Notes: generated from the sequence alone by a model not told the origin. DNA of 64,000 bases from a bacterium (GCA_030603395.1 JAUVXX010000004.1:3597-67596), one strand, 5' to 3'; counted from the first letter of the stretch, positions 5,989-60,848 are shown. Translations and numbers: made by a program.

Positions 5989-7593
5989 ATGCCAGTCTTA
6001 GATTCATATACAATTGAAAACTTCGCGGGGGGATTAGCAGATGAAGGGAAAAGGGGAGTGCCGGGAGCTTTTAGAAATGGATTCAACCTGAACATTCACA
6101 AAAAGGGAAAGAACACCCTATCTTGTAATCAGAAGTTAAAAAAGATTTCACCAGATTCAGGAGATCACCAAGTAGTGGATAAGGTTATCAAACTTGTCCC
6201 GGTGACAGCCACTAAATCCTATGGGTTTGGAGATGCCGGCAATGTCTATAAGATAGTTAATAGTACAGTTACCAAGATTTATACTGATTCGGGAGCAATC
6301 TTGGATGCCGATTATTTCTACGGTTATCTTGTTTGGACTACCGCTACAAAATTAAGAAAACAAGATGAGACCGTGGCTGATTGGAATGCCACGCCCCCAA
6401 CAGATGTAGGAACACTTACTTCCTGTAGCTACCACCCAATTTTTATAGTGCCAAAAAGCGATTTGATGTGTGTAGGAAACAAGAGATATATAGCAACGGT
6501 AAGTTCCAGTTGGGTATTCAATAATCAGGCATTAGATTTATTCTATGGCTGGATAGCAAAATGTTTAACTCTGATTAAACCCAAACTTTTAATCGGAGCA
6601 ATTAATAATAAAATAGCAGAATTGTTTGACTGGGACTTAACTTCTGAATCTTATGATCCAATAGAGGGCTGGGAGGAGAGAGATATTAATGCATTCCTAA
6701 AAACAATCGGCACAACCTATATTTTTACACCAGACCTTCTTTACTGGTTCAATGAAGGATTATCGGATCGGGCAAAAGAGCTGCCATCAGAAATCAATCA
6801 TGGAGCGTCTGATATTTGGAAAGGCAAAGTGCTTTTCGGGGCAACAAACGGAGTCTATTCTTATCACAAAAAAAACAAGAACTATCCGCTGGCTCTTAAC
6901 CTCGAGTACACTCCTTCTCCGATTACCATAGCGAACTTTGACTCAAAGAGCATAGAGATAGGGGCAGTCCTGGGAAGAGGGGATGACTTGCTTGTCTCGT
7001 GGAAAGACGGCGCGACTTACGGGCTGGATAACATTGATACCAGCAACAAGGCCCAGGCGGTCTATGAGGGATTAGTGTTTGATGCAAAAAAACCATTCCA
7101 GGATAAGCTATTTAGATACATTAAAATCGTAACAAAGCCATTGCCTGGCGGCTGCTCGATCAAAGCTAAATACAGGATGAATGAAGCTGGAGAATGGGTA
7201 AAAGCATACCAGGCGGATGAATCAGAGGCCTTTGATAAAGACGACCATAAAACAGGATCAGTGGCAGTTACTCAAAACTCAAAGACAGTGGCAGGAACAG
7301 GAACAGGATGGGATTCGTCAATGGTGGGAAGGAAATTCAGGGTAGATACCGATGGCGATCTTTACAAAATCGAGGCAGTCGGCTCTGCGACATCTCTCAC
7401 TTTATCAAGGCCTTATCAGGGAACAACGGGAAGCGGAAAGGATTATACGATTCTCGGAGAGACCAAGGTTGTATTCCAAATAGAGGGGGAAGGCGAGGTT
7501 TATGAGGTGAGAGTAGAATTATACCCGAGCGTAAACGACACTCCAGAAATCCTGTCAATCAATTCCTATTTTCAAGCCGAGAGTATTTATTAA
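5989..7593 (+). CDS. Phage hypothetical structural protein (534 aa)
   Basis: Large ORF in the structural block, 1 nt after the previous stop. Confidence 0.4.
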   Translation: MPVLDSYTIENFAGGLADEGKRGVPGAFRNGFNLNIHKKGKNTLSCNQKLKKISPDSGDHQVVDKVIKLVPVTATKSYGFGDAGNVYKIVNSTVTKIYTDSGAILDADYFYGYLVWTTATKLRKQDETVADWNATPPTDVGTLTSCSYHPIFIVPKSDLMCVGNKRYIATVSSSWVFNNQALDLFYGWIAKCLTLIKPKLLIGAINNKIAELFDWDLTSESYDPIEGWEERDINAFLKTIGTTYIFTPDLLYWFNEGLSDRAKELPSEINHGASDIWKGKVLFGATNGVYSYHKKNKNYPLALNLEYTPSPITIANFDSKSIEIGAVLGRGDDLLVSWKDGATYGLDNIDTSNKAQAVYEGLVFDAKKPFQDKLFRYIKIVTKPLPGGCSIKAKYRMNEAGEWVKAYQADESEAFDKDDHKTGSVAVTQNSKTVAGTGTGWDSSMVGRKFRVDTDGDLYKIEAVGSATSLTLSRPYQGTTGSGKDYTILGETKVVFQIEGEGEVYEVRVELYPSVNDTPEILSINSYFQAESIY

Positions 7594-7598
7594 AAAAA

Positions 7599-8993
7599 AT
7601 GCCAGGAAAAACAAAATTTAAAGAGAGAAAGATGAAGGTTTATTATAATCCAGAGATGGAAGACTTGCCATTCCCAGAACTGATGAGCTACAAGCTCCTA
7701 GTGGAGAAGCCCAGCGAATTGAAAGATATTAATGAAACAGAAGGAGTGAAGCTGACAGGGATTGAAGCAGGAGCAGATATAACCGCAACCCATCAGGCAG
7801 CATCAATTGTTGACCAAGGAGACCTGGCAACACTTGACCAAGTAAACACGGCTCAGATTGTTAATGCCGCCATTAAAGAAGCTCAATTAGCAGACCTTGC
7901 TGTTAGCGAGGGGAAGTTAAGGGATGCTGCCGTTGCTTTAGCAAAATTAGCAGACGAAGCAGTTAATGCCGATAAGATCTGGAAGGGTGGCAATGTGATT
8001 ACTTTATCAGCCCAGATCAAAGATGCCATAATTTTGAATGCTCATGTTGATAGCTTGGCCGCCCAAAAAATAACCTCTCAGATAGTGGATGCACAGATAG
8101 CAAACATAGGTTGGGCAAAGATTCTGAACGTGGCAATTGTAGATGCAGATATAGTGAATTTGACCGTAGAAAAATTAATAGGAACTTATCTGACAGGGAA
8201 AACGGTGAGAACAGCAACTTCTGGAGAAAGAGTCCAACTCGATGCTACTTATCACCAAATTGAATTTTATGATACAGCTGGAGCTTTGCAGGGAATTTTA
8301 GATATGTCCACCGAAGGACTCAGGGTAGTCAGTAACATCGCTGCGAAATCTCTAATGTTTTTTGCCAGAACAGCTGGTGGGAGCCTTCAAACAGTTGCCA
8401 CTTTCAAAACCTTGGAATGTCGGTTTTACAAAGATGTGCTGCCTGATGCAAATAATCAAAGAGATTTAGGTTCTCTCTCTTATAGATGGAAAAATCTTTT
8501 TATTGCAGGTGATCTCCTTATTAGTGGTTCCATCTCAGGTCCCTTAAAGCCGGCTGTTGATAACTCCGATTTTATTGGCACTTCTACTTATGGTTGGAAA
8601 AGTCTTTATTTTACAGATACCTATGACCCCAAAATATACAGAGGAGCTTCTATAGAATTAGAATTTGAGGCGGCTAATGTTAAATGCCACAGAAACCTTG
8701 TCACCAACGTCACAACTTTAAATCTTGGAAGCGCTGGAGAATACTGGAATGAGGTTCATTATCAATCCTTACATCCCCATACGCCAAAAATTATTGCTGA
8801 TAAAATAGGGTTTGAAATTCTAAATTCATTAAAAACAAAAAACGGCAGATTAGATGCCGTCAATGTAGATAAGAGGATAAAAGTTAACGGAAGATTAGAA
8901 TTGACTCATTTAGTGATGGCGAACATAGCAGCCACTAAAGACTTGGGAAAAAAAGTGAAAGAATTAGAGTCCACATTGGTTGTTAAAAATTGA
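7599..8993 (+). CDS. Putative tail fibre protein
   Basis: The central region has repeated A-x-I-x-x-A-x-I / DA-x-V heptad-like units (AQIVNAAIKEAQLADLAV, IKDAIILNAHVDSLAAQKI, IVDAQIANI, IVDADIVNL), which are typical of fibre shafts. Confidence 0.45.
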   Translation: MPGKTKFKERKMKVYYNPEMEDLPFPELMSYKLLVEKPSELKDINETEGVKLTGIEAGADITATHQAASIVDQGDLATLDQVNTAQIVNAAIKEAQLADLAVSEGKLRDAAVALAKLADEAVNADKIWKGGNVITLSAQIKDAIILNAHVDSLAAQKITSQIVDAQIANIGWAKILNVAIVDADIVNLTVEKLIGTYLTGKTVRTATSGERVQLDATYHQIEFYDTAGALQGILDMSTEGLRVVSNIAAKSLMFFARTAGGSLQTVATFKTLECRFYKDVLPDANNQRDLGSLSYRWKNLFIAGDLLISGSISGPLKPAVDNSDFIGTSTYGWKSLYFTDTYDPKIYRGASIELEFEAANVKCHRNLVTNVTTLNLGSAGEYWNEVHYQSLHPHTPKIIADKIGFEILNSLKTKNGRLDAVNVDKRIKVNGRLELTHLVMANIAATKDLGKKVKELESTLVVKN

Positions 8994-9446
8994 GTATTGA
9001 GACTTCAAAGATTTAAGTTTATCTGGATGATATCGCCAATCGGCAGGGCGATCATAATCTCTTAATTCTTCTTCTCTATAATGGATACATTCATCAATCC
9101 CAGGAAATGGCATTATTCCGCAGGTTTCCTTAATCTCGATTAGGAGTCGATCCGCTTCCCGGCACGCTTCTTCTTTAGCCAGTTTATCCTCTAACTCAGA
9201 AATGGTTTGTTCTTGTTGCGTGGTAGTTGCTCGAAGCCCAGAAATTATTTCCTCCTGTTCTGCCTGCCTTGTCTCAACGATTCCAACCCTGCCAAAGAGA
9301 TTATCAATTTGGGTAGCAAGAATTTCTACGGCTTCAGAAGGAGTTTTGCCAGCGACAAGAGAAGAGACAAAAGTCCCGCCAAGAGAGATAGTAGGAAGAG
9401 CTACAGCACCGATCAGAACACCAATTAAAAGAGATTTTGCCTTCAT
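8964..9446 (-). CDS. Secreted or membrane-anchored coiled-coil protein. It is the only large reverse-strand gene inside the virion module.
   Basis: Internal start MKAKSLLIGVLIGAVALPTISLGG looks like a signal peptide or TM segment. The ORF-track start at 9479 adds 11 aa. Confidence 0.4.
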   Translation of the reverse strand: MKAKSLLIGVLIGAVALPTISLGGTFVSSLVAGKTPSEAVEILATQIDNLFGRVGIVETRQAEQEEIISGLRATTTQQEQTISELEDKLAKEEACREADRLLIEIKETCGIMPFPGIDECIHYREEELRDYDRPADWRYHPDKLKSLKSQYSIFNNQCGL

Positions 9447-9601
9447 ACAATTTAATAATAACTCTTCGCAAAACACCATGTCAAGAGCAACAATTAAAAA
9501 AATCCTAAAATTTATCTACGAATTTATAGCATTGGGTTATGCGGGGATTTTCTTTAGCGATCAAATAAAAAGGTCGAGCCAAAAACTATTTAAAGACAAT
9601 A

Positions 9602-9817
9602 ATGTTTAATAAAAAATTGAAACAAGAGGATCTGGAAGAATTGAGGAAGAGAACCGAACTGATTAATCAGCATATTTTGATTAGCCAGGCTTTGGAAATG
9701 CAAAAGCGGATTTACATCAAAAATCTTCTCCCGAAATACGGATTAGACATGAACCAGAACTACGAGATTGATTTAGAATCGGGCAAGGTTGAGTTAGCTA
9801 AAGAACCACAAAAATAA
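9602..9817 (+). CDS. Small phage protein (71 aa)
   Basis: ORF preceded by the AAAAGGTCGAGC motif. Confidence 0.3.
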   Translation: MFNKKLKQEDLEELRKRTELINQHILISQALEMQKRIYIKNLLPKYGLDMNQNYEIDLESGKVELAKEPQK

Positions 9818-9818
9818 C

Positions 9819-11027
9819 ATGGCAACAATCGAAGACATTAGAATAACTCTGGAAAAGGCCCGGCAAAAGGCATTAGATGTTCAGGCGGGGATAAAAACAT
9901 TACCGGCCACACCAACCACCCCAACCTTAGGAGCTGGGGTTGGAGCTGGGGAAGGAACGCCACAAGACTACTCAGCCATATGGACAACTGAGTATGGAAA
10001 AGCAGGGCTGGAAGATGTTAAGACCAAGATCGCTGGGATTGACACGGATATATCAACCAGAAAAGCGACAAGAGATAAGGCATTGCTCACGGAAAAAGGC
10101 AAGCCGATTCCCCAATGGATGATTACCGGCAGAAAGAAATTGGAGATAGATGCAGCGACCGGGGATCTCAACCGGCTGATAGACGAGAGAAACACTCTGG
10201 CCGGCCAGTACAACACAGGCATAGAAGAAGTGACCAGGAAGGTCAGCTATAACATAAGCTATCAGCAAGAGATGCGGAGGCAATTAGAGACCACCAGGGC
10301 CTTCGGACTTGAAGAAAAGCTGTACGAATTGAGAAAGACAGAGGCGGAAAAACCAACAGAGTACGCACCACCTGCTTCATATAAGGAATGGGAGCTGGCT
10401 GGCAAGCCAGGGACTTTTGAGGATTGGTTAGCCACAGGTGGAGAAGCGGGAGTGAGTCCAGTTTATGGCAGATACCGGGACAGGCTAGAGGAAGAAATAA
10501 ATAATATGTACTCTGGAGTGTACGGCAAGGAGTTCTCGAGAGAGAAAGTAATTGAAATACTCAAGAGAGAATTCCCAGACACAGATGTGTCAGGAGACGT
10601 TTATGCCCGGGCTCCCGATGGCTATGAGGCAAAAATAGCAGAGGTAGGAGAGAACGTTGATACCTATGCTTGGGCAGTCCTTCGGGGAGAAAAGAGCCTG
10701 ACAAGCGTTCCTGACAGCATAGAGCCACAGGTGATATCGAGGCTGGAGGAGCTGAAGAAAACAGAAAGGGTTTATACCGATGAGCAAATAAAAGCAGATA
10801 TCAGAACTCGGATAGCGGAGACAAAAGCAAAATACGAAGAGGCAACCGATGAAGAGATCAAGGCAGCACTCGTTGATTCAATTACAAGATCGGACTTAAC
10901 CGATCCCGACAGGGAGAGATTCAACTTAATACTCAACGAGATATTGCCAGAGGAAGCAGGCTTTTGGGAAAAGTTCTGGACTCCGCCAAAAACAGTAGCG
11001 AGAAAGATAGGGGAAATATTCAAATAA
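9819..11027 (+). CDS. Phage hypothetical protein (402 aa)
   Basis: ORF in the co-directional block. Confidence 0.4.
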   Translation: MATIEDIRITLEKARQKALDVQAGIKTLPATPTTPTLGAGVGAGEGTPQDYSAIWTTEYGKAGLEDVKTKIAGIDTDISTRKATRDKALLTEKGKPIPQWMITGRKKLEIDAATGDLNRLIDERNTLAGQYNTGIEEVTRKVSYNISYQQEMRRQLETTRAFGLEEKLYELRKTEAEKPTEYAPPASYKEWELAGKPGTFEDWLATGGEAGVSPVYGRYRDRLEEEINNMYSGVYGKEFSREKVIEILKREFPDTDVSGDVYARAPDGYEAKIAEVGENVDTYAWAVLRGEKSLTSVPDSIEPQVISRLEELKKTERVYTDEQIKADIRTRIAETKAKYEEATDEEIKAALVDSITRSDLTDPDRERFNLILNEILPEEAGFWEKFWTPPKTVARKIGEIFK

Positions 11028-15658: not shown

Positions 15659-15937
15659 TTGTCAAGTATGTCAATAATAGATTACGCACAATTAGGCGGA
15701 GTGATCCTGATGGCGGTTATTCTCTACAAGATAGTGAACAGATTTCTGGACTCCCAGAAAAAGAGAGACGAGCAATTTATAGGATTTATTACAAAACAAG
15801 AAGATAATTTTGACAACCTCGTCAAGAATCATCTACACGAAGACACTAAGGCCAAGCATACTTTAGAGAAATCCCACCTAATATTATCAAATACAATAGA
15901 ACTTCTTCGTCAATGGCTAATGAAGAACGGAAAATAA
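15659..15937 (+). CDS. Small membrane protein, holin-like candidate
   Basis: 92 aa with an N-terminal hydrophobic segment (LGGVILMAVILYKIV), lying upstream of the amidase region. Confidence 0.3.
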   Translation: MSSMSIIDYAQLGGVILMAVILYKIVNRFLDSQKKRDEQFIGFITKQEDNFDNLVKNHLHEDTKAKHTLEKSHLILSNTIELLRQWLMKNGK

Positions 15938-16043
15938 GAAAGGGCACCCGCCAGCGAAAACCCGACAAAAAGTTAACGCTTTTTGGATGCCCGATTTTAG
16001 TTTAACAAATCAAAGTTTTTTTAACAATTAGAGGAGGCGCGAG

Positions 16044-16241
16044 ATGAGAAGTTTTTTAGAGATTATTCAAAGCTGGAAAAGTGGCGGAGAATTGGAGTAT
16101 CGTGGTTTCAGGTGCGGAGACTGCCAAAGACCCATTAGAAAGGCGTGGCACATCACGGTCAAGCATAAGGGGCGAACCTGGGAACTTCATCTCTGCAAGA
16201 AATGCGGCAAGAAATATAACTTAAAAGGAGTAATACAATGA
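16044..16241 (+). CDS. Zinc-ribbon small protein
   Basis: CGDC...CKKC cysteine pairs and a GAGGAGG Shine-Dalgarno sequence upstream. Confidence 0.4.
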   Translation: MRSFLEIIQSWKSGGELEYRGFRCGDCQRPIRKAWHITVKHKGRTWELHLCKKCGKKYNLKGVIQ

Positions 16242-16447
16242 AATGGTGGAAGCACGTTGAATGGTGGTTTCACGACAGAGAGTGGCATCTACATTCGGAC
16301 TTCCGACTGGACTCAGGAATGAAATTTGAAATTAGGGTTGACGGGCAAGCAATCTTGATGCGGACAGTCCCCAGAGATGAGCATTGGAAGGTTCACCTCG
16401 GCGGTTCGTTCCAGCCATACAAAAATCGCCAAGGAGGCGAAAAATGA
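16238..16447 (+). CDS. Small phage protein (69 aa)
   Basis: ATGA overlap with the upstream gene. Confidence 0.35.
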   Translation: MKWWKHVEWWFHDREWHLHSDFRLDSGMKFEIRVDGQAILMRTVPRDEHWKVHLGGSFQPYKNRQGGEK

Positions 16448-16581
16448 TGGTCGTAAGGATGGAGATTAAAAGCAATATGGATTTGATTGATTTGAGGCGG
16501 AGATTGTTGATAGCTCTAAAGAGCAAACGCACCATAAGGTTGACTATCAGGATGTGGCAGAAAAAGATGCCTCCAACGTAA
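16444..16581 (+). CDS. Small basic phage protein (45 aa)
   Basis: ATG at 16444 overlaps the previous stop as ATGA. This is the same frame as track ORF 16384..16581. Confidence 0.25.
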   Translation: MMVVRMEIKSNMDLIDLRRRLLIALKSKRTIRLTIRMWQKKMPPT

Positions 16582-16705
16582 TAACGGGGGGTGTAGGCAA
16601 GAGAGAGCCCGAAAGCGACCTTGCCTACCCCCCGACCAAATAAATCGATTGTAGGGGGAATTTTGAAGCTATTAGAGGAAAAAAAAGTCGGCGGCCGATT
16701 TTACC

Positions 16706-17308
16706 ATGTCAATAAACAATCCAAAATACATACTTGTTCACTGCTCGGCAGTAAGCCGCAAAAAAGCCCCAACGCAATTCTGGGCTATTAATCGCTATCA
16801 CGGAGTAGAAAGAGGATTTCCGATGAGTTCAATGGGCTACTTCGGGGGTTATCATTTCTTTTACGAACCAAACGGAACTGAATTGAGATACAAGAGGGAT
16901 TGGGAAGTGGGAGCTCATTGTAATAGCAAAGTCAATGGAGTCAGTATGAATTTCCAGAGCATTTCATTATGTTGGGGCGGAGACGGGGATAACGAAACAC
17001 CCACTCCGAAACAAACGGAGAATATGAGAATAAGAATTAAGAAACTGGTTGAGAAGTATAATATTCCTCTGACCAATATCTATGTTGGTCCTCACCGACT
17101 ATGGACAAAATGGAAAACCTGCTATGGAAAAATGCTCTCAGATGATTGGGCTTATTTACTGGTGAAACCGAAAGAGAAACTTGCCTACGAAAGAGAAGCG
17201 GAAGAAAAGATCGCAGATATGAAAAGGAAGCTTGATAGGGTAAGAGAGATAATACTTAAAATAATGATTAGATTAAATAAGTTTTTCAAAGGTCGCAAAA
17301 TAAAATAA
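16706..17308 (+). CDS. N-acetylmuramoyl-L-alanine amidase (T7-lysozyme / PGRP type) endolysin
   Basis: ILVHCSA, GYHFF..NG, VGAHC and SISLCWGG line up with the T7 lysozyme motifs IFVHCSAT, GYHFII..DG, VGSHA and IGVCLVGG. Confidence 0.75.
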   Translation: MSINNPKYILVHCSAVSRKKAPTQFWAINRYHGVERGFPMSSMGYFGGYHFFYEPNGTELRYKRDWEVGAHCNSKVNGVSMNFQSISLCWGGDGDNETPTPKQTENMRIRIKKLVEKYNIPLTNIYVGPHRLWTKWKTCYGKMLSDDWAYLLVKPKEKLAYEREAEEKIADMKRKLDRVREIILKIMIRLNKFFKGRKIK

Positions 17309-17317
17309 TATAAAATT

Positions 17318-17542
17318 ATGGCTGAACCAATTACAATTACTATTGAGAATCCAAAGAGTTTAGCATACCGGGTTCTCTTGAGATTTGTTCGAGGTTTTGT
17401 CGCAGGCGGCTTAGCAGCGATGGTATTGGTGGCTCCCTTGGCAGGTTTAAGTTTGACAGATTTGAGGTTCTGGATTCTCGCCTTGATAGGCGCCTTTATG
17501 ACTGGAGGGCTTCAAGCTGTTGGTAAGTGGATTAGAGAATGA
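17318..17542 (+). CDS. Two-TM small membrane protein (holin-like candidate)
   Basis: 74 aa with two hydrophobic stretches, directly after the amidase. Confidence 0.4.
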   Translation: MAEPITITIENPKSLAYRVLLRFVRGFVAGGLAAMVLVAPLAGLSLTDLRFWILALIGAFMTGGLQAVGKWIRE

Positions 17543-17654
17543 AGGATAAAATTCTTAGTGTCTTTTTTAGATGTCTGATTTATTTAGGGAGCGCCACCGC
17601 ATTTCTTTATTGGTGAATTGTCTTGAGAAAGACTTGGTTTTAAAGTTTGAGCGG

Positions 17655-17693
17655 CCCGCCAGTTTTTAGTTAGGGCTATTCTGGCGGGTTTTT
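17655..17693 (+). terminator. Rho-independent terminator ending the lysis block
   Basis: CCCGCCAG...CTGGCGGG stem followed by TTTTT. Confidence 0.7.
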
Positions 17694-17784
17694 ACTTGAC
17701 AATATTTTGGGCTTGAGTAGGATTTGATTATTAAAAGGTCGATTCGTAGCTTTTTAAAGCTCATTCGTGCTGGGCGAATCAATC

Positions 17785-17812
17785 TTGACAAGGATTCCTA
17801 TTATTTTATAAT
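17785..17812 (+). promoter_or_regulatory. Sigma70-type promoter for the integrase gene
   Basis: TTGACA (17785-17790), a 16-nt spacer, then TATAAT (17807-17812). It is embedded in a long palindrome. Confidence 0.55.
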
Positions 17813-17839
17813 AGGAGGAATCCCTGCTCGCCAGCACGA

Positions 17840-18733
17840 GTGGGGATTCTTTTTATGAGATTAAAAGATTACTTTCCAGATTTTTTGGAGTATATGCGGA
17901 AAAAAGGTCTGACAGAGCATACCATCGGAGAGCATAAAAGATTTCTTTATGGAGCGTTGGGGCATTGCCCACTTAAAGACAAAAGAGCAAAGGACTTGAG
18001 ATTGATTGATGTGGCAGATGTAATAGAGGCCGGCAGGCTTCACGGCGAATATGGTCCACAAAGGTCAGTAGTTACCCTGCGAAGATTTCTGAAGTTCTTA
18101 TACGATAGCGGTATCAGATTGCCCTTTGACTGGCAAGAGATTAAAATTCCAATGGTTCCAGAAAAAGAACAGCCCTATTTAACCGAAGGAGAGTTTGATG
18201 GCTTTGTTGAAAAGATACCTCTAAATACCCTATATGGATTAAGAAACCGGGCCTTGTATGAGGTTCTGTTCTCTACCGGGGCAAGAATTGGAGAGATCGT
18301 ATCACTCAAGAGAGATATTATTGATTGGGAAAACAGGGAAGCCAAGATAAAGAATGCGAAGAGCGGAGACGAGGGAATGATTTATTTTTCAGAAAGAAGC
18401 TTAAGGTGGTTGAAAAGATACTTAGACACCCGGGCGGATAATTGCCCTGCTCTATTTATCACCTACGGCTTCCAGGGGATCACTCCGTTGTCTGGGATGA
18501 TGTCAAGAAAACACCTGGCAGCTTACAGGAGAAAGTTGGAGGTCAAGAAAAGAATTACCCACCACGCTTTCAGAAGAAGCTTGGCGACATTGTTATTGGA
18601 GAATGGAGCAACGATAAAAGAAGTTCAGTATCTAATGCGCCATAAATCAGAGAGGACCACTCTAAGATTCTATACAAAGGTAAATAAAAGGAGGGCAAAG
18701 GAAGTCCATCAGAGGATTTTGGACAGGAAATAG
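17840..18733 (+). CDS. Tyrosine recombinase / phage integrase. The ATG at 17855 is an alternative start.
   Basis: GARIGEI (Arg), HHAFRRSLAT (HxxR) and MRHKSERTTLRFY (His...Tyr) match the catalytic signature. Confidence 0.85.
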   Translation: MGILFMRLKDYFPDFLEYMRKKGLTEHTIGEHKRFLYGALGHCPLKDKRAKDLRLIDVADVIEAGRLHGEYGPQRSVVTLRRFLKFLYDSGIRLPFDWQEIKIPMVPEKEQPYLTEGEFDGFVEKIPLNTLYGLRNRALYEVLFSTGARIGEIVSLKRDIIDWENREAKIKNAKSGDEGMIYFSERSLRWLKRYLDTRADNCPALFITYGFQGITPLSGMMSRKHLAAYRRKLEVKKRITHHAFRRSLATLLLENGATIKEVQYLMRHKSERTTLRFYTKVNKRRAKEVHQRILDRK

Positions 18734-31055: not shown

Positions 31056-31088
31056 CAGGAAACATTTTTCGTATAGCGAAAAATGCAC

Positions 31089-31224
31089 AGGAGGGGTCGG
31101 GAGGATTGGGTATCCTCCCGTGTAGGAAAACAGGCTTTCGCCGAAGGCGAAAACGTTAGAAACCGAGGGTGTCTAAGGAGCGGTGTTAGCGCACTCGCTC
31201 AAGGCGAGTGTCGCGTGCCGCGAC
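31089..31224 (+). ncRNA. Unclassified structured RNA motif, copy 1
   Basis: Shares five conserved blocks and two covarying helices with 39529-39640. It abuts the 5' end of the next tRNA. Confidence 0.5.
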
Positions 31225-39496: not shown

Positions 39497-39528
39497 AGAG
39501 TCCGTTAGATTTGAGTAGTCTATTAGAT

Positions 39529-39640
39529 AGGAGAGGGGTCGGGAGAACCGCAGGTTCTCCCGTGTAGGAAAAGATTAAAAACCGAGGGTTTTTAAAGAGC
39601 GGTGTTAGCGCCCCGCCACAGCGGGGGTGCGTGCCGCGAC
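39529..39640 (+). ncRNA. Unclassified structured RNA motif, copy 2 (nusG 5' leader)
   Basis: Homologous to 31089-31224 with compensatory changes in two helices. It ends 18 nt before the nusG ATG. Confidence 0.5.
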
Positions 39641-49336: not shown

Positions 49337-51070
49337 TTATTTTTTGTACTCAATTTCTATTCTCACCTCTCTTAAAAACTTTGTCAAGGATGTCTCGCCA
49401 ATATCTCCTTTTCCTCTTTCCCTCACCCGAACGTTTTTCTTTTTCATTTCTCTATCGCCGACCACCAGAAGATAGGGGATTTTCTGGATTTCTCCCTCTC
49501 TTATTTTTTTGGAAACCGTTTCAGCTTCGGTTTTTGCTTCAACGCGGAAACCCTCCGATTCTAACTTTTCAGCAATCTCACCCGCATATTTTCGATGATT
49601 GGAACCCACCGGAATCACCCAAACCTGTTCCGGAGATAACCATAAAGGCAAAGCTCCAGCAAAATGTTCTATCAAGATGCCAATAAATCTTTCCAGAGAG
49701 CCGTAAATAACTCTATGAATAACTACTGGAGTTTTCTTTCTTCCCTTGGTATCAGTATACTTGAGGTCAAAATTCTTTGGTATTTGAAAGTCCAATTGGA
49801 TAGTGCCTGTTTGCCATTCTCGACCAATGGAGTCTTTCATTAAAATATCAATTTTAGGACCATAAAAAGCACCATCACCCTCCAAAATTGTGTATTCTTC
49901 ACCACTCTCTTTGAGAATTTCTTTTAATGCCTTCTCTGCCTTATCCCACGACTTTTTATCTCCCATGAATTTTTCTGGGCGAGTGCCCAAACGGAAAGAA
50001 TATCTCAGATTAAATACGGAATAGAATCGCTTAACTATCTCCAATATTTCTTTGTATTCGCTTTTAATTTGCTCTTCAGTAAGGAAGATATGAGCGTCGT
50101 CTTGACGGAATTCTCGCACCCGAAAAAGTCCATAAAGAGTGCCTGAACGTTCAGACCGATGTATGGTGTCAATATCACTAAATCTCAAGGGCAGTTCTTT
50201 GTAAGACCTTGACCTCTGGCTATAAACTATCATGGCATTGGGGCAGTTCATTGCTTTTATTCCGTATGTCTCCTCCTCCTCGGTTTTTACGGTAAACATC
50301 TCTTCTTTATAATGTTCCCAGTGTCCCGAAGTTTCATAGAGTTCTTTTTTGTTGAGTAAGGGGGTAACGATTTCCTGATAACCTCTTTTTTTGTGTTCCT
50401 CTCGCCAGAAATTTATTAATTCGTTGTAAATAATTACTCCTTTAGGCAGCCAATAGGGCATGCCGGGGGCGGTCTCATGGAGGAAAAATAGTTCTAATTT
50501 CTTGCCTAATTTTCTGTGGTCACGTTCTTCGGCTTCTTTCATCATTTTAAAATAATTGTCTAACTCTTTCTTGGTTTTAAATGCTATTCCATAAATCCGG
50601 GTGAGCATGGGATTTTTTTCACTGCCTCGCCAATAAGCCCCGGCAGTTTTAGTAAGTTTAAATGCCTTAGGATCTATCTCCTTGGTTGATTTAATATGCG
50701 GTCCCTTGCACAAATCAACAAAATCGCCAACCCGATATGTAGAGATTGACAGAGGACTGTCCTCTGTAAGTTCTTTTATGAGTTCAATTTTATATTTTTG
50801 ATTCTCTTTTATTTTAAAAAATGTAATTGCTTGTCTACGAGACCATTTCTTTTTTTCGAATTTCAAATTCATCTTAATAATCTCTTTCATTTTCTTTTCA
50901 ATTTTGGGAAGGTCCTCTGGTGAAATAGGGGAGGGGAAGTCAAAATCATAATAAAAGCCATTCTCAATGGCGGGACCAATACCAAACTTAACTTTAGGGT
51001 ACATTTCCTGAACCGCAGCAGCTAGTATATGAGATAAGGAGTGTCTAATGGTATCAATTTTTGTTAGCAT
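49337..51070 (-). CDS. thrS: Threonyl-tRNA synthetase (lacks the N-terminal TGS domain)
   Basis: HSLSHILA second-additional-domain motif, class II core and an anticodon-binding domain. Confidence 0.9.
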   Translation of the reverse strand: MLTKIDTIRHSLSHILAAAVQEMYPKVKFGIGPAIENGFYYDFDFPSPISPEDLPKIEKKMKEIIKMNLKFEKKKWSRRQAITFFKIKENQKYKIELIKELTEDSPLSISTYRVGDFVDLCKGPHIKSTKEIDPKAFKLTKTAGAYWRGSEKNPMLTRIYGIAFKTKKELDNYFKMMKEAEERDHRKLGKKLELFFLHETAPGMPYWLPKGVIIYNELINFWREEHKKRGYQEIVTPLLNKKELYETSGHWEHYKEEMFTVKTEEEETYGIKAMNCPNAMIVYSQRSRSYKELPLRFSDIDTIHRSERSGTLYGLFRVREFRQDDAHIFLTEEQIKSEYKEILEIVKRFYSVFNLRYSFRLGTRPEKFMGDKKSWDKAEKALKEILKESGEEYTILEGDGAFYGPKIDILMKDSIGREWQTGTIQLDFQIPKNFDLKYTDTKGRKKTPVVIHRVIYGSLERFIGILIEHFAGALPLWLSPEQVWVIPVGSNHRKYAGEIAEKLESEGFRVEAKTEAETVSKKIREGEIQKIPYLLVVGDREMKKKNVRVRERGKGDIGETSLTKFLREVRIEIEYKK

Positions 51071-56363: not shown

Positions 56364-57049
56364 AAGATTTTTCTCAATTAGAAAAAAAGTTGGGTTTAAA
56401 ATTCAAGAATAAAGATCTTTTAATTCAAGCTTTTATTCACCGTTCCTACCTGAACGAGAACCCCAAATTTTATTTAGACCATAACGAAAGATTAGAGTTT
56501 TTAGGGGATGCCGTCTTGGAAATAGTCGTTACCAAATATCTTTATCAGAAATATCCTAAAAAATCCGAAGGAGAACTTACCAATTGGAGGGCGGCTTTGG
56601 TCAATGCCCAAAGTTTATCAAAGATTGCCAAAAACCTTGGGTTTGGAGAATATCTTTTGCTTTCCCGGGGAGAGACCAAAGACACTGGCAAAGCTCGCCA
56701 ATATATTTTAGCCAACACTTTTGAAGCATTTTTGGGGGCTTTTTATCTTGACCAGGGATTGGAAAAAGTTCGGCAGTTTGTCAAAACTCATTTAATTAAA
56801 GAATTAGCCAAAATTTTAAAAGAAGGACTTTGGCGAGACGCTAAATCAAGTTTTCAAGAAGAGGGCCAGGAGAGAGCAAGAATTACCCCCAATTATAAAG
56901 TTTTAAAAGAATGGGGACCAGACCATGCCAAACATTTTGTGATCGGAGTGTTCCTGGGAAAAGAATTGGTGGCTGAAGGAGAGGGTTCTTCCAAACAAGA
57001 AGCCGAAGAGAAAGCCGCCCAAGCAGCCTTAAGAGCCAAAAACTGGTAA
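56360..57049 (+). CDS. rnc: Ribonuclease III
   Basis: [12 protein letters not shown] signature and a C-terminal dsRBD. Confidence 0.9.
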
Positions 57050-57055
57050 AAAAAT

Positions 57056-57514
57056 ATGTTAGTTATTCGTTTTTTAAGAGCAGGCAAAAAAAATCAACCA
57101 TTTTTCAGGATTGTCGTTACCGACAAAAAGAATCCACCCAGAGGCGGCAGGTTTTTAGAAGTGGTTGGCTTTTTTAATCCCTTAACCAAAGAAAAGAAGT
57201 TGAAGAAAGAGCGAATTAAATATTGGCTCAGCGTTGGCGCTCAACCTTCCGACACTGTCCATAATTTATTGGTAGGGGAGAAAATTATTGAGGGTAAAAA
57301 AATAGACGTCCACAAAAAGCCCAAGAAAAAGGAGAAACCGGAAGAAGAAAAACCAGCAGAGAAACCAAAGGAAGAGATGAAAGAAGAGAAAAAGGAAGAG
57401 AAGCCAAAAGAAGAAGAGAAATCAAAAGAGGAAAAGCCATCTGAAGAAAAGCCAAAAGAAAAACCCAGGGAAGAGGAAAAACCAGAAAGACCCCCTCAAC
57501 CCCTTGACAAATAA
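57056..57514 (+). CDS. rpsP: 30S ribosomal protein S16 with a roughly 70-aa K/E/P-rich tail
   Basis: [23 protein letters not shown]. Confidence 0.9.
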
Positions 57515-57531
57515 TATAGCTATGCTATAAT
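57504..57531 (+). promoter_or_regulatory. Consensus sigma70-type promoter overlapping the rpsP 3' end
   Basis: TTGACA (57504-57509), a 16-nt spacer, then TATAAT (57526-57531). Confidence 0.5.
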
Positions 57532-57537
57532 ACAAGC

Positions 57538-57664
57538 ACAAGAAGAAAAATAGAATGACTAAATTTTGGAGAGAGGATTTAGTCAAATTTAATCGATAGA
57601 TATCTACTGATTAGAAATTTATTCGCAACAGGCGACTCTCTCTGGAGAGTCGCCTGTTGCTTTG
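57538..57664 (+). ncRNA. Candidate small RNA, or a structured rpsP 3' UTR, ending in a 16-bp terminator hairpin
   Basis: Promoter above, GACTAAAT...ATTTAGTC hairpin, and the perfect stem GCAACAGGCGACTCTC/GAGAGTCGCCTGTTGC (57625-57660) followed by TTTG. There is no ORF longer than 14 codons. Confidence 0.35.
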
Positions 57665-57884
57665 TAAAAATATGTATCAAACTCTTCTCAGAAGCCCTAT
57701 TTAAGGTTTCTGGGGAGAAGGATGGAGGGGAGAGAGAAAAGCTCGAATTAGGCCGTCTCGGCTGTTCGCCAGCCGATCAGACGAATACCTAAATCAAGCA
57801 AATAAAAATGTTCTTCTCCATCCTTCTCTTGAACAGCATATTTTTTAAAAAAAAGATATCAAAGATATCAGAAAGGTGATAAAA

Positions 57885-58028
57885 ATGACGGTAGTCGACC
57901 ACAATCACCACAGTCCTTCCAACAGAGATGTCAGATGGGCGGTGGATACCCGGACGGGTCAAGTTCTCCCTCCCCGAGAACTTGAAGATCGTCTACAAGA
58001 GCGGACTTCGTGGCGAGTAAAGAATTAG
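57885..58028 (+). CDS. Small protein (47 aa), not in the ORF track
   Basis: AAAGGTGAT Shine-Dalgarno sequence 5 nt upstream of the ATG. It is preceded by a nested-helix leader. Confidence 0.25.
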   Translation: MTVVDHNHHSPSNRDVRWAVDTRTGQVLPPRELEDRLQERTSWRVKN

Positions 58029-58276
58029 GATCTGTCAGGTGGGGCCCCGAAGAGCCGCGCCTGAAAACAGAAGGACTTGCACTTTTCAGAAAAAATAAGG
58101 GAAGGAGGAAAGAGCTTTTGCTCGTTATTATTTCTCCTTCCCTGGTCTCCCAAGTTCAGAATTTGCAGAGGACAGTCCTCCGTAAGCTCAATTCTGGATT
58201 TAGGAGATTGGATGTAGATTAAAAAATAAAAAATAAGGAAAAAGCTCGCCGCCGTAGGTGGGCAGGAGGAAAGAAA

Positions 58277-58678
58277 ATGAAAGAAAAGAAAAGGCAAGAA
58301 ATTCAGGGAAAAACTAGTTGGAATGGAGTGAATTATCTAAGGCGAAGGGTAGTCATTGACGACTATCCAGAGGGATACGAGATAAGGTGTTTTAGAAAAG
58401 ATGAGCTTCATCTTTCTGTAGAAGATCGTCCCAACTATGTTTTTTTCCGGAGGCATGCTAATTTCCTAAGCATTATACGTTTAATAGGGATTTTCTTAGG
58501 AGATATAATCTTAGGAGGGGAAGTGAATGGTATTTGCTGGTGTGGAAGTAAAAAACACCACCATTTCACTTTTCATGATGAAACAGAAGAGGATATTTGG
58601 GACACTGTAAATAAATACATTTGTCCCAACTGCGGCGATATAGGAAGAAGTATCAGTAAGCCGGAGCACTCTGACTAG
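58277..58678 (+). CDS. Hypothetical protein with a C-terminal zinc-ribbon-like motif (CWCG...CPNCG)
   Basis: 133-aa ORF with AGGAGGAAAG upstream. Confidence 0.4.
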   Translation: MKEKKRQEIQGKTSWNGVNYLRRRVVIDDYPEGYEIRCFRKDELHLSVEDRPNYVFFRRHANFLSIIRLIGIFLGDIILGGEVNGICWCGSKKHHHFTFHDETEEDIWDTVNKYICPNCGDIGRSISKPEHSD

Positions 58679-59024
58679 CTGTAAAATAGGACCATCGGTC
58701 AGTGCAAGGCTAATATTGAAATATTGCACCCTCCAGATATGCAGGTATAGTCTGGTTGTATGGGAGAAAACGCCCGCACTATATCGTGATTCCCAAGAGG
58801 TGGATATAGTGTATGAAGCGTCCCTGCCTTTTTAAGGCATTCTTCTTTTTTCACCATAGCCGGAGTGCCCTGGCCGGCTGCAAAACAGAAGGGTCGAAAT
58901 TCTATGTGGAGAGAGTGAGGTATACTCCTCTCTCCACCCACTTTCCCAGTTCCTTACCAGGTAGGGGATTGAGAAAGTGGGGAAAGTACATTTTATTCAA
59001 AAAAATAAATAAGGAGAAGTTATA

Positions 59025-59420
59025 ATGACACCAAGAAATCTTGAAGAGGTGAGAAAGGAAGTTGAAAAAATAAGAGATAACTTTGGAAAACCTGTTGAGG
59101 GAAAGATAAAGCCATTGGTGATTGGCTTGCGAAGATGGGGGATAAAAACAAGGCAGTCATGTGAAGGTCATCTGTCTCGTGCTCTCTCTTATCCTTGGGT
59201 ATCAATTTCTAAAAGACAAGTTAGCAGGGTAGTTAAAATAATGGGTCGGCATAATGGACTAAGACTTCCGGATGGGAAGAAGAATAGAAATATTTGGGTA
59301 TTGAGGCCTGGTGGAGTACTACGTTTAATGCCAGAGGAGAAAAATCGAGATTTAGAGGGAATGCAAAAAGATGCCATTGAACGCGGACTCTTTTTGCAAA
59401 ATCTTCCGGATGAATGGTGA
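59025..59420 (+). CDS. Hypothetical protein (131 aa)
   Basis: AAGGAGAAG Shine-Dalgarno sequence, followed by a 10-bp hairpin and a T-run. Confidence 0.4.
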   Translation: MTPRNLEEVRKEVEKIRDNFGKPVEGKIKPLVIGLRRWGIKTRQSCEGHLSRALSYPWVSISKRQVSRVVKIMGRHNGLRLPDGKKNRNIWVLRPGGVLRLMPEEKNRDLEGMQKDAIERGLFLQNLPDEW

Positions 59421-59713
59421 TAAATAGATGAGAAAAAATGAGAGAGGTAGGGGTTACTTATTTCTCTGCCTCTCTAGTTTTTCTTCGGAGAGTTGCCAGT
59501 GAGATAGATCGGACATTAGTTAGGAAGTTTTGGCGATTTTCGCCAAAATCTCTCTCCTCATTCTTCAAAACTGATGTTCGAATAATTCTATATTTGCTGG
59601 CAGCTTTCTGGGGAAAACTTGACATTTTTCTTCAGCAGAGTAAGATATTCAATAGAAGAGTAGCTTTTCAAGATTATTTGCCGATTCTCTGAATTGCTGA
59701 AAGAGAGAATCGC

Positions 59714-59742
59714 TTGAAAGGTCGGGCTACTGATCGGATAAT
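59714..59742 (+). promoter_or_regulatory. Promoter for the KH-domain gene and trmD
   Basis: TTGAAA, a 17-nt spacer, then GATAAT. Confidence 0.4.
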
Positions 59743-59763
59743 TGAATTCAAACGAAAAGAATT

Positions 59764-60084
59764 ATGGCAACTAAAGATTCCGATAAAGAATTTCTGGAGT
59801 ATGTAATCAAAGCTCTAGTTGACAATCCTGACGATGTAAAACTTGACCGAAAAGTTGACGAGATGGGGGTTTTGCTTTCTTTGAAAGTTAATCCTGAAGA
59901 CATGGGTCAAATCATTGGAAAGGATGGAGCAACTGCCAGAGCAATCCGAAATCTTGTCCGGATTGTGGGACTCAAAAATCACGCAAGAGTTAACTTGAAG
60001 ATTGAAGAGCCCGTTGGTGGAAGAGGCGGAACAAGAGAAAAAGCTGCAGAAAAGAAAGGAGATTTGGAGGATTTGAAACTCTAA
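59764..60084 (+). CDS. KH-domain RNA-binding protein (YlqC/UPF0109 family)
   Basis: GQIIGKDGATARAIRNLV contains the GxxG KH motif. The gene sits in the usual position between rpsP and trmD. Confidence 0.8.
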   Translation: MATKDSDKEFLEYVIKALVDNPDDVKLDRKVDEMGVLLSLKVNPEDMGQIIGKDGATARAIRNLVRIVGLKNHARVNLKIEEPVGGRGGTREKAAEKKGDLEDLKL

Positions 60085-60152
60085 AAGAAATCTTCCAGTT
60101 GAATTTTCCGGAAACGGTGCTACTATAGAAAGGTAGCGCCGTTTTCGTTTCC

Positions 60153-60848
60153 ATGAAGTTTGACATTATTACAATCTTTCCGGAGATTTTTGATTTTTAC
60201 TTCAAGCATTCCATTATTAAAAAAGCTCAAGAAAAAGGAGTAATAAAGATTCAAGTTCACAATCTTAGAGATTTCACGGGGGACAGACACAAAACCGTTG
60301 ATGACAAACCCTTCGGTGGTGGCAGAGGCATGGTACTCAAGCTGGAACCAATATTTAAGGCGGTTTCCAGCTTGAAAAATCCCAAATCCCAAATCCTAAA
60401 TCCCAAAAAGTTGAAGAAGAAAATGAAAGTGATTCTTTTTACCCCGAGAGGGAAGAAATTTAATCAGAAAATGGCTACTCGCTTGGCAAAACTTGACCAG
60501 ATTATTCTAATTTCTGGCAGATATGAAGGGGTGGACGAAAGGGTAGCCAAGCATCTCTGCGATGAAAAAATTTCCATGGGGGATTACGTTTTAATGGGTG
60601 GGGATTTACCGGCTTTAACATTAATTGAAACGGTGGCCAGATTAATTCCCGGGGTGATTGGCAAATCTGAACTGTTAAAGGAGAGAATTACCAAACAGAA
60701 AGGATTTATAGAATATCCCCAATATACCAGACCAGAGGTATTTGAATCTAAACCAAAAGTAAAATGGCGGGTGCCCAAAATTCTTTTGTCCGGCAACCAT
60801 AAAAAGATTGAGGAATGGCGGAAGAAACAGGGCAAAATCATTGAATAA
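60153..60848 (+). CDS. trmD: tRNA (guanine37-N1)-methyltransferase
   Basis: [38 protein letters not shown]. Confidence 0.9.

Follow-up and report, generated by a model that had tools for sequence, protein, structure and literature searches.

A probable small copy of a hypervariable gene-cassette island between rpsP and khpA in Nealsonbacteria-like Patescibacteria

The hyperplastic regions of phage T4 contain repeats known as PeSL (promoter-early stem-loop) that separate small open reading frames (ORFs) of unknown function, and the modules of these regions are shuffled by homologous recombination. Phage T7 has RNase III hairpins, which are sense-strand intergenic stems of ~18-20 bp with conserved irregularities, located between an ORF and the next ribosome-binding site. 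Patescibacteria have tiny genomes with very few recognisable mobile elements, and the turnover of their accessory and defence genes is poorly understood. To our knowledge, no integrons have been described in Patescibacteria, and almost no non-coding RNAs are known in the phylum. The locus described here is in a stretch of 64,000 nucleotides (nt) of a bacterial genome (GCA_030603395.1, JAUVXX010000004.1:3597-67596), which is called the window. It is the gap of 2249 nt between rpsP and khpA (57515-59763), ~65% of which is non-coding. The part from 57515 to 59617 is probably a small example of the hypervariable, lineage-specific gene-cassette islands of Nealsonbacteria-like Patescibacteria, and its site, between rpsP and the promoter of khpA, is an insertion hot spot. 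A full-text search of the literature found no description of such hairpin-bounded islands in Patescibacteria, the candidate phyla radiation (CPR), or Nealsonbacteria, and the island is apparently undescribed.

The insert is one instance of a recurrent, ordered, and hypervariable cassette island. Its order is as follows: element A with its promoter, a structured segment, a junction with cassette 1 (the gene for a protein of 133 amino acids (aa) and element X), a junction with cassette 2 (the gene for a 131-aa protein), and element D (Table 1). Each of the two junctions (58098-58232 and 58906-59010) consists of a variable hairpin 1, followed by the conserved junction hairpin 2 and an A/U-rich tail. 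The sequence of hairpin 1 varies among cassettes, and the junction hairpin after it is common to all. Relatives were obtained as 80 species-level genome loci fetched via TrmD, and the loci and contigs used for comparison carry L numbers. Copy 1 of the junction hairpin is 94% identical to L104 (window 58146-58209, L104 6-69), and copy 2 has homologues in L095, L098, L088, and L007.

The junction hairpin, with the consensus aaUCUCCCaAGUUCAgAAu...aUUcUGGAUUuAGGAGauu, is a structure under selection. An alignment of 20 copies, which includes variants from L013, L014, and L033 and copy 2 of the window, has an 18-bp stem in which 97.5% of the cells are paired and 13 of the 18 pairs show compensatory changes. 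The observed covariation score was matched by 0 of 500 shuffles, and slid controls pair only 24-57%. Conserved features of the stem are the C.A mismatch and a core of G.U / U-A / U.G, and these fold on the sense strand only. A covariance model, R1, was built from the alignment and scanned over 910 kb, where it gave 95 matches at E <= 0.1. Exactly two of these are in the 64-kb window, and both are within the insert (copy 1, 62 bits on the plus strand vs 19 on the minus strand; copy 2, 59 vs 16). Among the 80 genome loci, 17 have an R1 match (15 at E < 0.01), and many of these were not represented in the seed alignment. With trmD oriented plus, the matches in these genome loci are nearly all on the plus strand and upstream of khpA. 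A metagenome scan with the right arm of the hairpin found 17 contigs, several with two or three copies spaced 0.7-1.3 kb apart. L007 has an array of seven genes, and almost all of its gene boundaries have a junction hairpin. The sequence-only reading had described the insert as hairpin-dense, and its hairpins are conserved.

Gain and loss of cassettes map to the junction hairpin. L090 and L091 differ by an extra cassette of ~0.7 kb that is flanked by duplicated hairpin and tail sequence (-37 to +49 around the right-arm start). L088 and L095 are 98.8% identical until 40 nt past the right-arm start of the hairpin, carry different genes past that point, and converge again at the next junction hairpin. 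In L095, L098, and L088, element D comes directly after a C-type junction, and in the window the gene for the 131-aa protein is between them. Cassette content is almost wholly different among genomes, and the junction hairpin, D, and A are conserved. A complete example at the same site is provided by L100 plus L092, with the order rnc-rpsP-ORF148-hp-ORF110-hp-ORF197-D-khpA-trmD, in which hp stands for hairpin. Arrays are also present at other chromosomal sites, by rluD and rplS in L095 and L088, and by rplI and pyrG in L102. A small hairpin in the 5' untranslated region (5'UTR) and a ribosome-binding site are common to cassettes that are otherwise different.

The cargo of the islands is mostly family-less and probably consists of accessory genes. 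The exceptions are Csx3 (L007 and L102), a PIN-domain toxin (L007), and a KH-domain protein (L099). Csx3, a CRISPR-associated family, is present as a stand-alone gene at L007 1373-1693 (Pfam 7.7e-30) and at L102 5431-5736 on the minus strand (1.4e-5). The PIN-domain toxin is encoded on the opposite strand at L007 4510-4881 (1.8e-16). The presence of Csx3 and a PIN toxin in the islands of relatives suggests a conflict or defence-type gene pool.

The stretch 57515-59617 is a true insertion into a conserved gene cluster. All 80 loci are from Patescibacteria, mostly labelled Nealsonbacteria, Paceibacterota, or Parcubacteria, and the closest TrmD relatives are L007 (82% identical) and L008 (80% identical). 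These loci commonly have the gene order rnc-rpsP-khpA-trmD. L008 has no spacer, as 1 nt separates its rpsP stop codon from the khpA promoter, the -35 box of which is within CTTGACA, and the insertion in the window is therefore 57515-59617. The sequence-only reading had placed the end of rpsP at 57514 and the start of the KH gene at 59764, some 2.2 kb apart, and had proposed an insertion that split a conserved cluster. Those coordinates hold, and the spacer-free L008 bears out the insertion. Both genes were found in 49 loci, with a start-to-start distance of 294-1126 nt in 38 and 1354-5436 nt in 11. The distance is 2708 nt in the window. In several further loci, rpsP was not found in the sequence available 5' of khpA. 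The rpsP/khpA junction is an insertion hot spot, because the distances vary and the ORFs inside the inserts of different loci are nearly all mutually unrelated.

No terminal repeats flanking the insert and no target-site duplication were seen, and Pfam scans of the ORFs of the window found neither a transposase nor an integrase in the insert, in agreement with what had been read from the sequence. CTTGACA at both edges was considered as a target-site duplication and was rejected, as these are the -35 boxes of two promoters. It had also been pointed out that the locus lacks rimM and rplS. Both are absent here, but this is not special to the window. Related loci likewise have neither gene at this position, so the absence is a property of the clade. 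In relatives, rplS is located elsewhere (e.g., L095). The start-to-start distance from khpA to trmD is ~0.4 kb in related loci and therefore leaves no space for rimM. No RimM or PRC-barrel match was found in the insert with Pfam, the AlphaFold model of the 131-aa protein had no match in PDB at E <= 0.001, and neither a diverged rimM nor an ordinary conserved spacer was found in the relatives.

The khpA promoter is ancestral and was not made by the insertion, because it is present in nearly all relatives, including those without an insert. The core of the 5' leader that follows it was found in ~70 of 78 distinct khpA upstream regions, and its loop GAAAGGUCG is usually 20-45 nt before the ATG. 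L008 5422-5535 is the promoter and leader equivalent of window 59619-59733, and equivalents are also present upstream of khpA in most of L007-L086. The khpA promoter had been read at 59714-59742 and taken as a sign that the insertion cut the operon and left khpA with a promoter of its own. This does not stand, since that span is partly inside the conserved leader RNA, the real promoter is at 59619-59646, and promoter and leader are kept together in genomes with and without an insert.

Table 1. Features of the insert and of the genes on either side (positions in the 64,000-nt window).
Feature	Position	Strand	Description
rpsP	57056-57514	+	ribosomal protein S16 with long K/E-rich tail; Pfam PF00886, 1.1e-22; left housekeeping flank
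Promoter of element A	57504-57531	+	TTGACA, 16 nt, TG-n-TATAAT; 12/12 consensus; -35 box overlaps last rpsP codons
Element A	57538-57665	+	leader or small RNA of ~130 nt, three hairpins; fold z -8.2
Structured segment	57666-58095	+	long hairpin with 13-bp perfect core (57715-57727 / 57816-57828); contains 47-aa ORF 57885-58028
Hairpin 1, first junction	58098-58143	+	AGGGAAGGAGGAA...TTTCTCCTTCCCT; variable GGAGG/CCTCC stem
Junction hairpin, copy 1 (B type)	58144-58232	+	18-bp stem, nested mini-hairpin in loop, A/U-rich tail
Cassette gene 1	58277-58678	+	133-aa protein with C-terminal CWCGSK...CPNCG zinc ribbon; small 5'UTR hairpin and AGGAGG ribosome-binding site ahead
Element X	58697-58901	+	non-coding block of ~205 nt travelling with cassette 1
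Hairpin 1, second junction	58906-58937	+	GTGGAGAGAG...CTCTCTCCAC; 10 bp perfect
Junction hairpin, copy 2 (C type)	58939-59010	+	same fold and C.A mismatch as copy 1; compensatory stem changes
Cassette gene 2	59025-59420	+	131-aa member of a Patescibacteria protein family that is conserved and has no name; SCxGH...PW invariant
Hairpin after cassette gene 2	59434-59482	+	GAGAGAGGTAG...CTGCCTCTCT; overlaps start of the D match
Element D	59444-59621	+	rod-like RNA closing the array; nhmmer profile E 2.8e-38
khpA promoter	59619-59646	+	TTGACA, 16 nt, TAAGAT; clade-wide; marks right boundary of the insertion
khpA 5' leader	59654-59733	+	stem AGUAGC/GCUACU around a variable hairpin and near-invariant GAAAGGUCG; outside the insertion
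khpA	59764-60084	+	KH-domain RNA-binding protein; Pfam PF13083 (KH_KhpA-B), 1.2e-20; right housekeeping flank
trmD	60153-60848		5e-52 (Pfam)

The left end of the array is formed by element A. Its promoter has an extended -10 box and matches the consensus perfectly, as does only one other promoter in the 64 kb. The last part of the element is a perfect hairpin of 16 bp (57625-57660), with UUUG after it. This hairpin is terminator-like by eye and was not listed by a terminator scan of 56800-60400. The 5' box of A, GGAGAGAG, is complementary to CUCUCUCU in the terminator arm, and this complementarity would resemble that of an attenuator. L013, L011, L033, and L014 have A homologues directly after rpsP or upstream of khpA, and these have kept the promoter, the 5' box, and the terminal hairpin. 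In L011, there are compensatory changes in the terminal hairpin. The second perfect consensus promoter is at 17785-17812 and is followed by a hairpin, within a gene-poor gap (17308-17840) in which no junction hairpin was found. The structured segment after A is part of the 57665-58276 fold (z -10). The 47-aa ORF in this segment was rejected as a gene, as its codon score of -0.045 is like that of spurious ORFs and it has no homologue.

Only two ORFs in the gap, those encoding the 133- and 131-aa proteins, have coding support. Three small family-less ORFs had been listed at first, and two of these are upheld; the 47-aa ORF is not. The codon usage of both cassette genes is coding-like and atypical for the host. 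The codon score of the 133-aa ORF (0.157) exceeds the 95th percentile of spurious ORFs (0.080) and is lower than that of host genes (0.283 +/- 0.065), and the 131-aa ORF has a score of 0.132. Searches with Pfam, PHROGs, and PADLOC gave only sub-threshold zinc-ribbon matches for the ORFs of the insert, and PADLOC has no family for either protein, so the description of these proteins as family-less is confirmed.

The 133-aa protein has one true homologue, P0031, with 51% identity, among 1.84 billion cluster representatives (exhaustive HMMER). A word-indexed search with the protein returned only the self-match. A third match, to a 2380-aa repeat protein, was judged to be a repeat-inflated artefact. 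The CxC...CxxC motif that had been read as a zinc ribbon is real and is conserved in P0031. The P0031 gene is in L104, where it is flanked by junction hairpins, X follows it, and the next gene differs from that in the window. Element X is 92% identical to L104 788-995, downstream of P0031, and its last 45 nt, which form a GCCGG...CCGGC hairpin, occur twice in L007. X was considered as a stable RNA and as a small-protein gene; its fold z is only -0.68, and the substitutions are too few for the coding test.

The 131-aa protein has 22 homologues with 36-58% identity. They are encoded in unrelated contexts as ordinary genes without junction hairpins, which fits capture of such a gene into the array. 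The AlphaFold model has a predicted local distance difference test (pLDDT) score of 91. A profile search of PDB sequences found no match, and Foldseek found none in PDB at E <= 0.001. Against viral structures, Foldseek gave weak matches to uncharacterised jumbo-phage proteins (E ~5e-3, template modelling (TM) score 0.4-0.5).

Element D closes the array. Its full form is ~175 nt; the copy in the window is shorter and is without the internal 5' hairpin and the promoter of its own. D has 11 matches in 10 other loci, and several of them have their own TTGACA...TGnTAAAAT promoter. D was considered as a 6S RNA; there is no Rfam match, and the consensus is rod-like with little covariation since the copies are close.

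The insert differs from its surroundings in composition and in folding. GC content is 0.46-0.48 in two stretches of the insert vs 0.35-0.41 in the flanks, and the earlier count of 34/60 at 58861-58920 is correct, as read directly from the sequence. It had been proposed that more than half of the segment is non-coding and full of perfect helices. This holds, as perfect helices of 9-16 bp are present and the insert is hairpin-rich relative to the rest. Four non-coding blocks gave fold z values of -8.2, -10.0, -4.1, and -7.9 against dinucleotide shuffles. When the whole window was scanned (1065 windows of 120 nt), the mean z was -2.95 in the insert vs -0.66 outside, and the share of 120-nt windows with z < -3 was 42% vs 7%. 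Rfam at the gathering threshold found only tRNAs in the window and seven related loci. At E <= 10, the region 57400-59900 gave only chance-level matches, and ARAGORN found no tmRNA. The four blocks thus fold far below their shuffles, and a known RNA family was not recognised.

The khpA leader, outside the insertion, is a further structured element. Outer-stem changes (GUAGU/ACUAC and GCAGC/GCUGC) are apparent. RNAalifold on 13 minimal khpA leaders gave 3 of 7 pairs as compensatory, partly from misalignment, and the script that finds the stems of the leaders selects for pairing and is not an unbiased test. The leader has no Rfam match. It may be an autoregulatory site, because KhpA binds RNA. 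In L026, there is a 3.1-kb island (6825-9972) between the genes for tRNA-Tyr and tRNA-Thr, downstream of trmD. Besides junction hairpins, a gene of the ORF127 family, and D, it holds the khpA leader and a khpA copy (9557-9898) that is the second in the locus and is divergent. Movement or recombination of the island may therefore include khpA and its leader.

There are two further observations on the junction modules. A mini-hairpin of the type CAGAGGAC..GUCCUCYGUAAG is nested in the loop of the junction hairpin in the window (58163-58189) and at the same position in L091, L093, and L104. L102 and L007 have another loop insert, of the AAUGUAACAAAUGG..UUUGUUACA type, which is unrelated to the first, and both types recur across contigs. 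The nested mini-hairpin looks like a small insertion module inside the junction module. A hairpin at 50749-50774 resembles the nested mini-hairpin and was dismissed as a coincidence, as it is within a coding region, apparently the threonyl-tRNA synthetase gene. The islands of other sub-lineages contain internal repeats of 100-160 nt with 92-96% identity downstream of the junction hairpin (L013 2927-3024 / 4496-4592, L033 3085-3202, and L007 3054-3213 / 4209-4369), which include the CUUCAUAGCGGCGAAGUG box and the 5'UTR hairpin. With this identity, the junction modules appear to be homogenised within each array.

The way in which the array works can be proposed from its order. It would be transcribed on the plus strand from the A promoter, with the A terminator gating read-through. 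The junction hairpin probably acts in RNA, because its G.U wobbles and C.A mismatch fold only on the sense strand, and it could be a site for processing, stability, or protein binding. The junction hairpin, the small 5'UTR hairpin, and the ribosome-binding site could together serve as expression signals for each cassette. At the DNA level, the junction is probably also the substrate of the homologous exchange that shuffles cassettes, because it is a repeat of ~65 nt.

A number of points weigh against the reading as a cassette island and against these roles. Transcription past the strong A terminator is an assumption, and all of the RNA-level roles of the array are ones that we infer. The junction hairpin does not look like an intrinsic terminator. 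Its tail (UUGGAU/AAGUU...) is not a clean U-tract, neither copy was listed when 56800-60400 was scanned for terminators, and terminators are not typically conserved in sequence among species as this hairpin is. No sigma-70-like promoter inside the array was found by promoter scan or by reading the junction sequences, and neither a processing enzyme nor a binding protein is so far linked to the junction hairpin. The 430-nt segment at 57666-58095 has no homologue in any fetched locus. No ORF127 gene or remnant was found in the insert, though this family opens many arrays. The junction hairpin and X are 92-94% identical to L104 vs 51% for the protein between them, the N-terminus of which differs. 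This pattern is unexplained by simple descent and points either to a recent exchange of the flanks or to very fast evolution of the ORF. Lastly, the loci sampled surround khpA or were fetched by the hairpin pattern, and the genome-wide spread of the hairpin is known for this 64-kb window only.

The main alternative, though an unlikely one, is that the cassettes are captured by a site-specific, hairpin-directed process like that of integrons. The junction would then be a folded-DNA or cruciform site, the ORF127 nuclease the candidate enzyme, and the copy in the window non-autonomous. Several features of the arrays are consistent with this, including ORFs of the same orientation 0.4-1.2 kb apart, imperfect palindromes whose arms are conserved and whose centres vary (4-45 nt), the inverted PIN toxin cassette of L007, and cassette gain and loss exactly at the hairpin. 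In addition, an ORF127-family gene is at the left end of seven arrays (L007, L026, L088, L095, L097, L098, and L100). The AlphaFold model of ORF127 (pLDDT 87.5) appears mostly similar to PD-(D/E)XK nucleases among its best PDB matches, with the Hjc Holliday-junction resolvase as the top Foldseek match (probability 0.96). However, all of the Foldseek matches are weak (E 0.08-1), and the window is without an ORF127 gene. No integrase, transposase, RAYT, or tyrosine or serine recombinase was found in the complete islands bounded by housekeeping genes (Pfam; window, L007, L026, L095, L092, L102, and L099). The attC core boxes are absent from the hairpin consensus, and the much better folding of the sense strand is the opposite of attC and typical of RNA. 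Mosaic breakpoints are also found off the hairpin, for example around X, and general homologous exchange fits these better. A weak tblastn match to ORF127 (E 0.023) is at 15984-16142 of the window, in a gene-poor gap (15937-16706) where no junction hairpin was found.

The sequence-only reading had offered a decayed mobile element and a toxin-antitoxin or defence module as explanations, and neither fits the island well. It is improbable that the insert is the remnant of a phage, plasmid, or other mobile element, with the ORFs as leftover cargo, the hairpins as terminators or remnants, and no function as a unit. The foreign look of the insert, with locally higher GC and atypical codon usage, would fit such a remnant, as would the family-less genes, the likeness of the 131-aa model to jumbo-phage proteins, the 430-nt segment without a homologue, and the lack of a mobility gene. 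But no DNA or protein match was found in INPHARED phages, PLSDB plasmids, or IMG/VR, and each of the two ORFs is intact and has a ribosome-binding site. Conservation is highest in the non-coding modules, which also covary, and decay would give the opposite. Many genomes repeat the ordered arrangement of the modules, which is found at several chromosomal sites, and decay is too simple an explanation for this. A compact toxin-antitoxin or anti-phage module, in which A, X, D, and the two proteins form one system, is very improbable even though structured RNAs adjoin small proteins, in two arrays the 133-aa gene and X are closely linked, and the pool to which Csx3 and the PIN toxin belong is enriched in conflict-type genes, since PADLOC, Pfam, and PHROGs gave no toxin-antitoxin or defence match for either protein, the two genes form independent cassettes seen together in this genome only (the 131-aa family is found alone elsewhere, and the 133-aa homologue has a different neighbour), and A, D, and the junction hairpin accompany wholly different cargo in other genomes and thus belong to the island and not to a two-gene system. 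Decay and a dedicated toxin-antitoxin or defence function are both less likely than the cassette island because the non-coding parts are conserved and the genes are independent cassettes.

The cassette island at the rpsP/khpA hot spot shows recurrent, ordered storage of unrelated small genes with one covarying stem-loop and two conserved small RNAs in a core ribosomal cluster. If the junction acts in RNA, there would be several new RNA motifs, namely the junction hairpin, A, D, X, and, separately, the khpA leader. If it is a recombination site, it would represent a new mechanism of cassette capture. Either way, the covariance model can be used to find such islands and their cargo (Csx3, PIN, and many family-less genes) in metagenomes. 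A more ambitious and doubtful proposal is that the junction hairpin, the Hjc-like nuclease ORF127, and D make up a recombinase-independent cassette acquisition system of Patescibacteria, as a nuclease/stem-loop analogue of the integron. If true, such a system would build defence and anti-defence arrays beside core translation genes in ultra-small episymbiotic bacteria.

The window also contains two copies of an element of ~100-125 nt (31075-31215 and 39517-39640), with the pattern GAGGGGUCGGGAG...CUCCCGUGUAGGAAAA...AAACCGAGGGU...GAGCGGUGUUAGCGC. There are seven compensatory base pairs between the copies, and there is no Rfam match at the gathering threshold. One copy is between tRNA genes, and the other is just upstream of an ORF at 39602.

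The island can be compared with several described types of repeats and arrays. Of the Rfam families, none (6S, tmRNA, RNase P, SRP, riboswitches, ribozymes, and OLE/GOLLD/ROOL) was found in the insert at the gathering threshold. Like repetitive extragenic palindromic (REP) sequences, bacterial interspersed mosaic elements (BIME), and miniature inverted-repeat transposable elements (MITE; Correia and the enterobacterial repetitive intergenic consensus (ERIC)), the junction hairpins are short, repeated, imperfect intergenic palindromes, and such elements can affect transcript stability. However, the junction hairpin is not dispersed, with its two copies in 64 kb both in the island, and the hairpins are in strict order and orientation between cassettes. 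No RAYT or IS200-IS605 TnpA was found, and neither terminal inverted repeats nor a target-site duplication was seen. The hairpins would be similar, by analogy, to the RNase III hairpins of T7, as each is a long irregular sense-strand stem between an ORF and the next ribosome-binding site. Unlike these, the junction hairpin is a sequence family repeated across genomes that marks the boundaries of gene presence and absence, and cleavage could be proposed only by analogy.

The island also resembles the T4 PeSL arrays and integrons. As in T4, a repeated stem-loop module is found between small ORFs, with a signature of recombination at the junction. The stem-loop is present; in the junction tail, the promoter scan and a reading of the sequences showed no canonically spaced pair of sigma-70-type hexamers, the one promoter type covered. 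The island belongs to the chromosome of a cell, INPHARED and IMG/VR gave no match to its DNA or proteins, and its hairpin has a conserved non-canonical core. As in integrons and in clusters of attC sites lacking integron-integrases (CALIN), mostly small, unrelated ORFs on the same strand, 0.4-1.2 kb apart, are each bounded by an imperfect palindrome in which the arms are conserved and the centre varies. The palindrome is also the exact point at which single cassettes are present or absent, a strong promoter is located at one end, and an inverted toxin cassette occurs occasionally. The island is without IntI or another recombinase in Pfam scans, although a CALIN needs none. Neither RYYYAAC nor GTTRRRY is found at the hairpin ends on either strand, and GTTCAGA in the 5' arm does not fit the consensus. 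The ~65-nt junction is conserved in sequence across cassettes and is not cassette-specific. The hairpin folds best on the sense strand, with G.U pairs, whereas attC uses the bottom strand. In addition, the junction carries a 5'UTR hairpin and a ribosome-binding site, and the arrays end in a dedicated RNA, D. The island works like an integron or a T4 PeSL cassette array but falls outside what defines membership in either.

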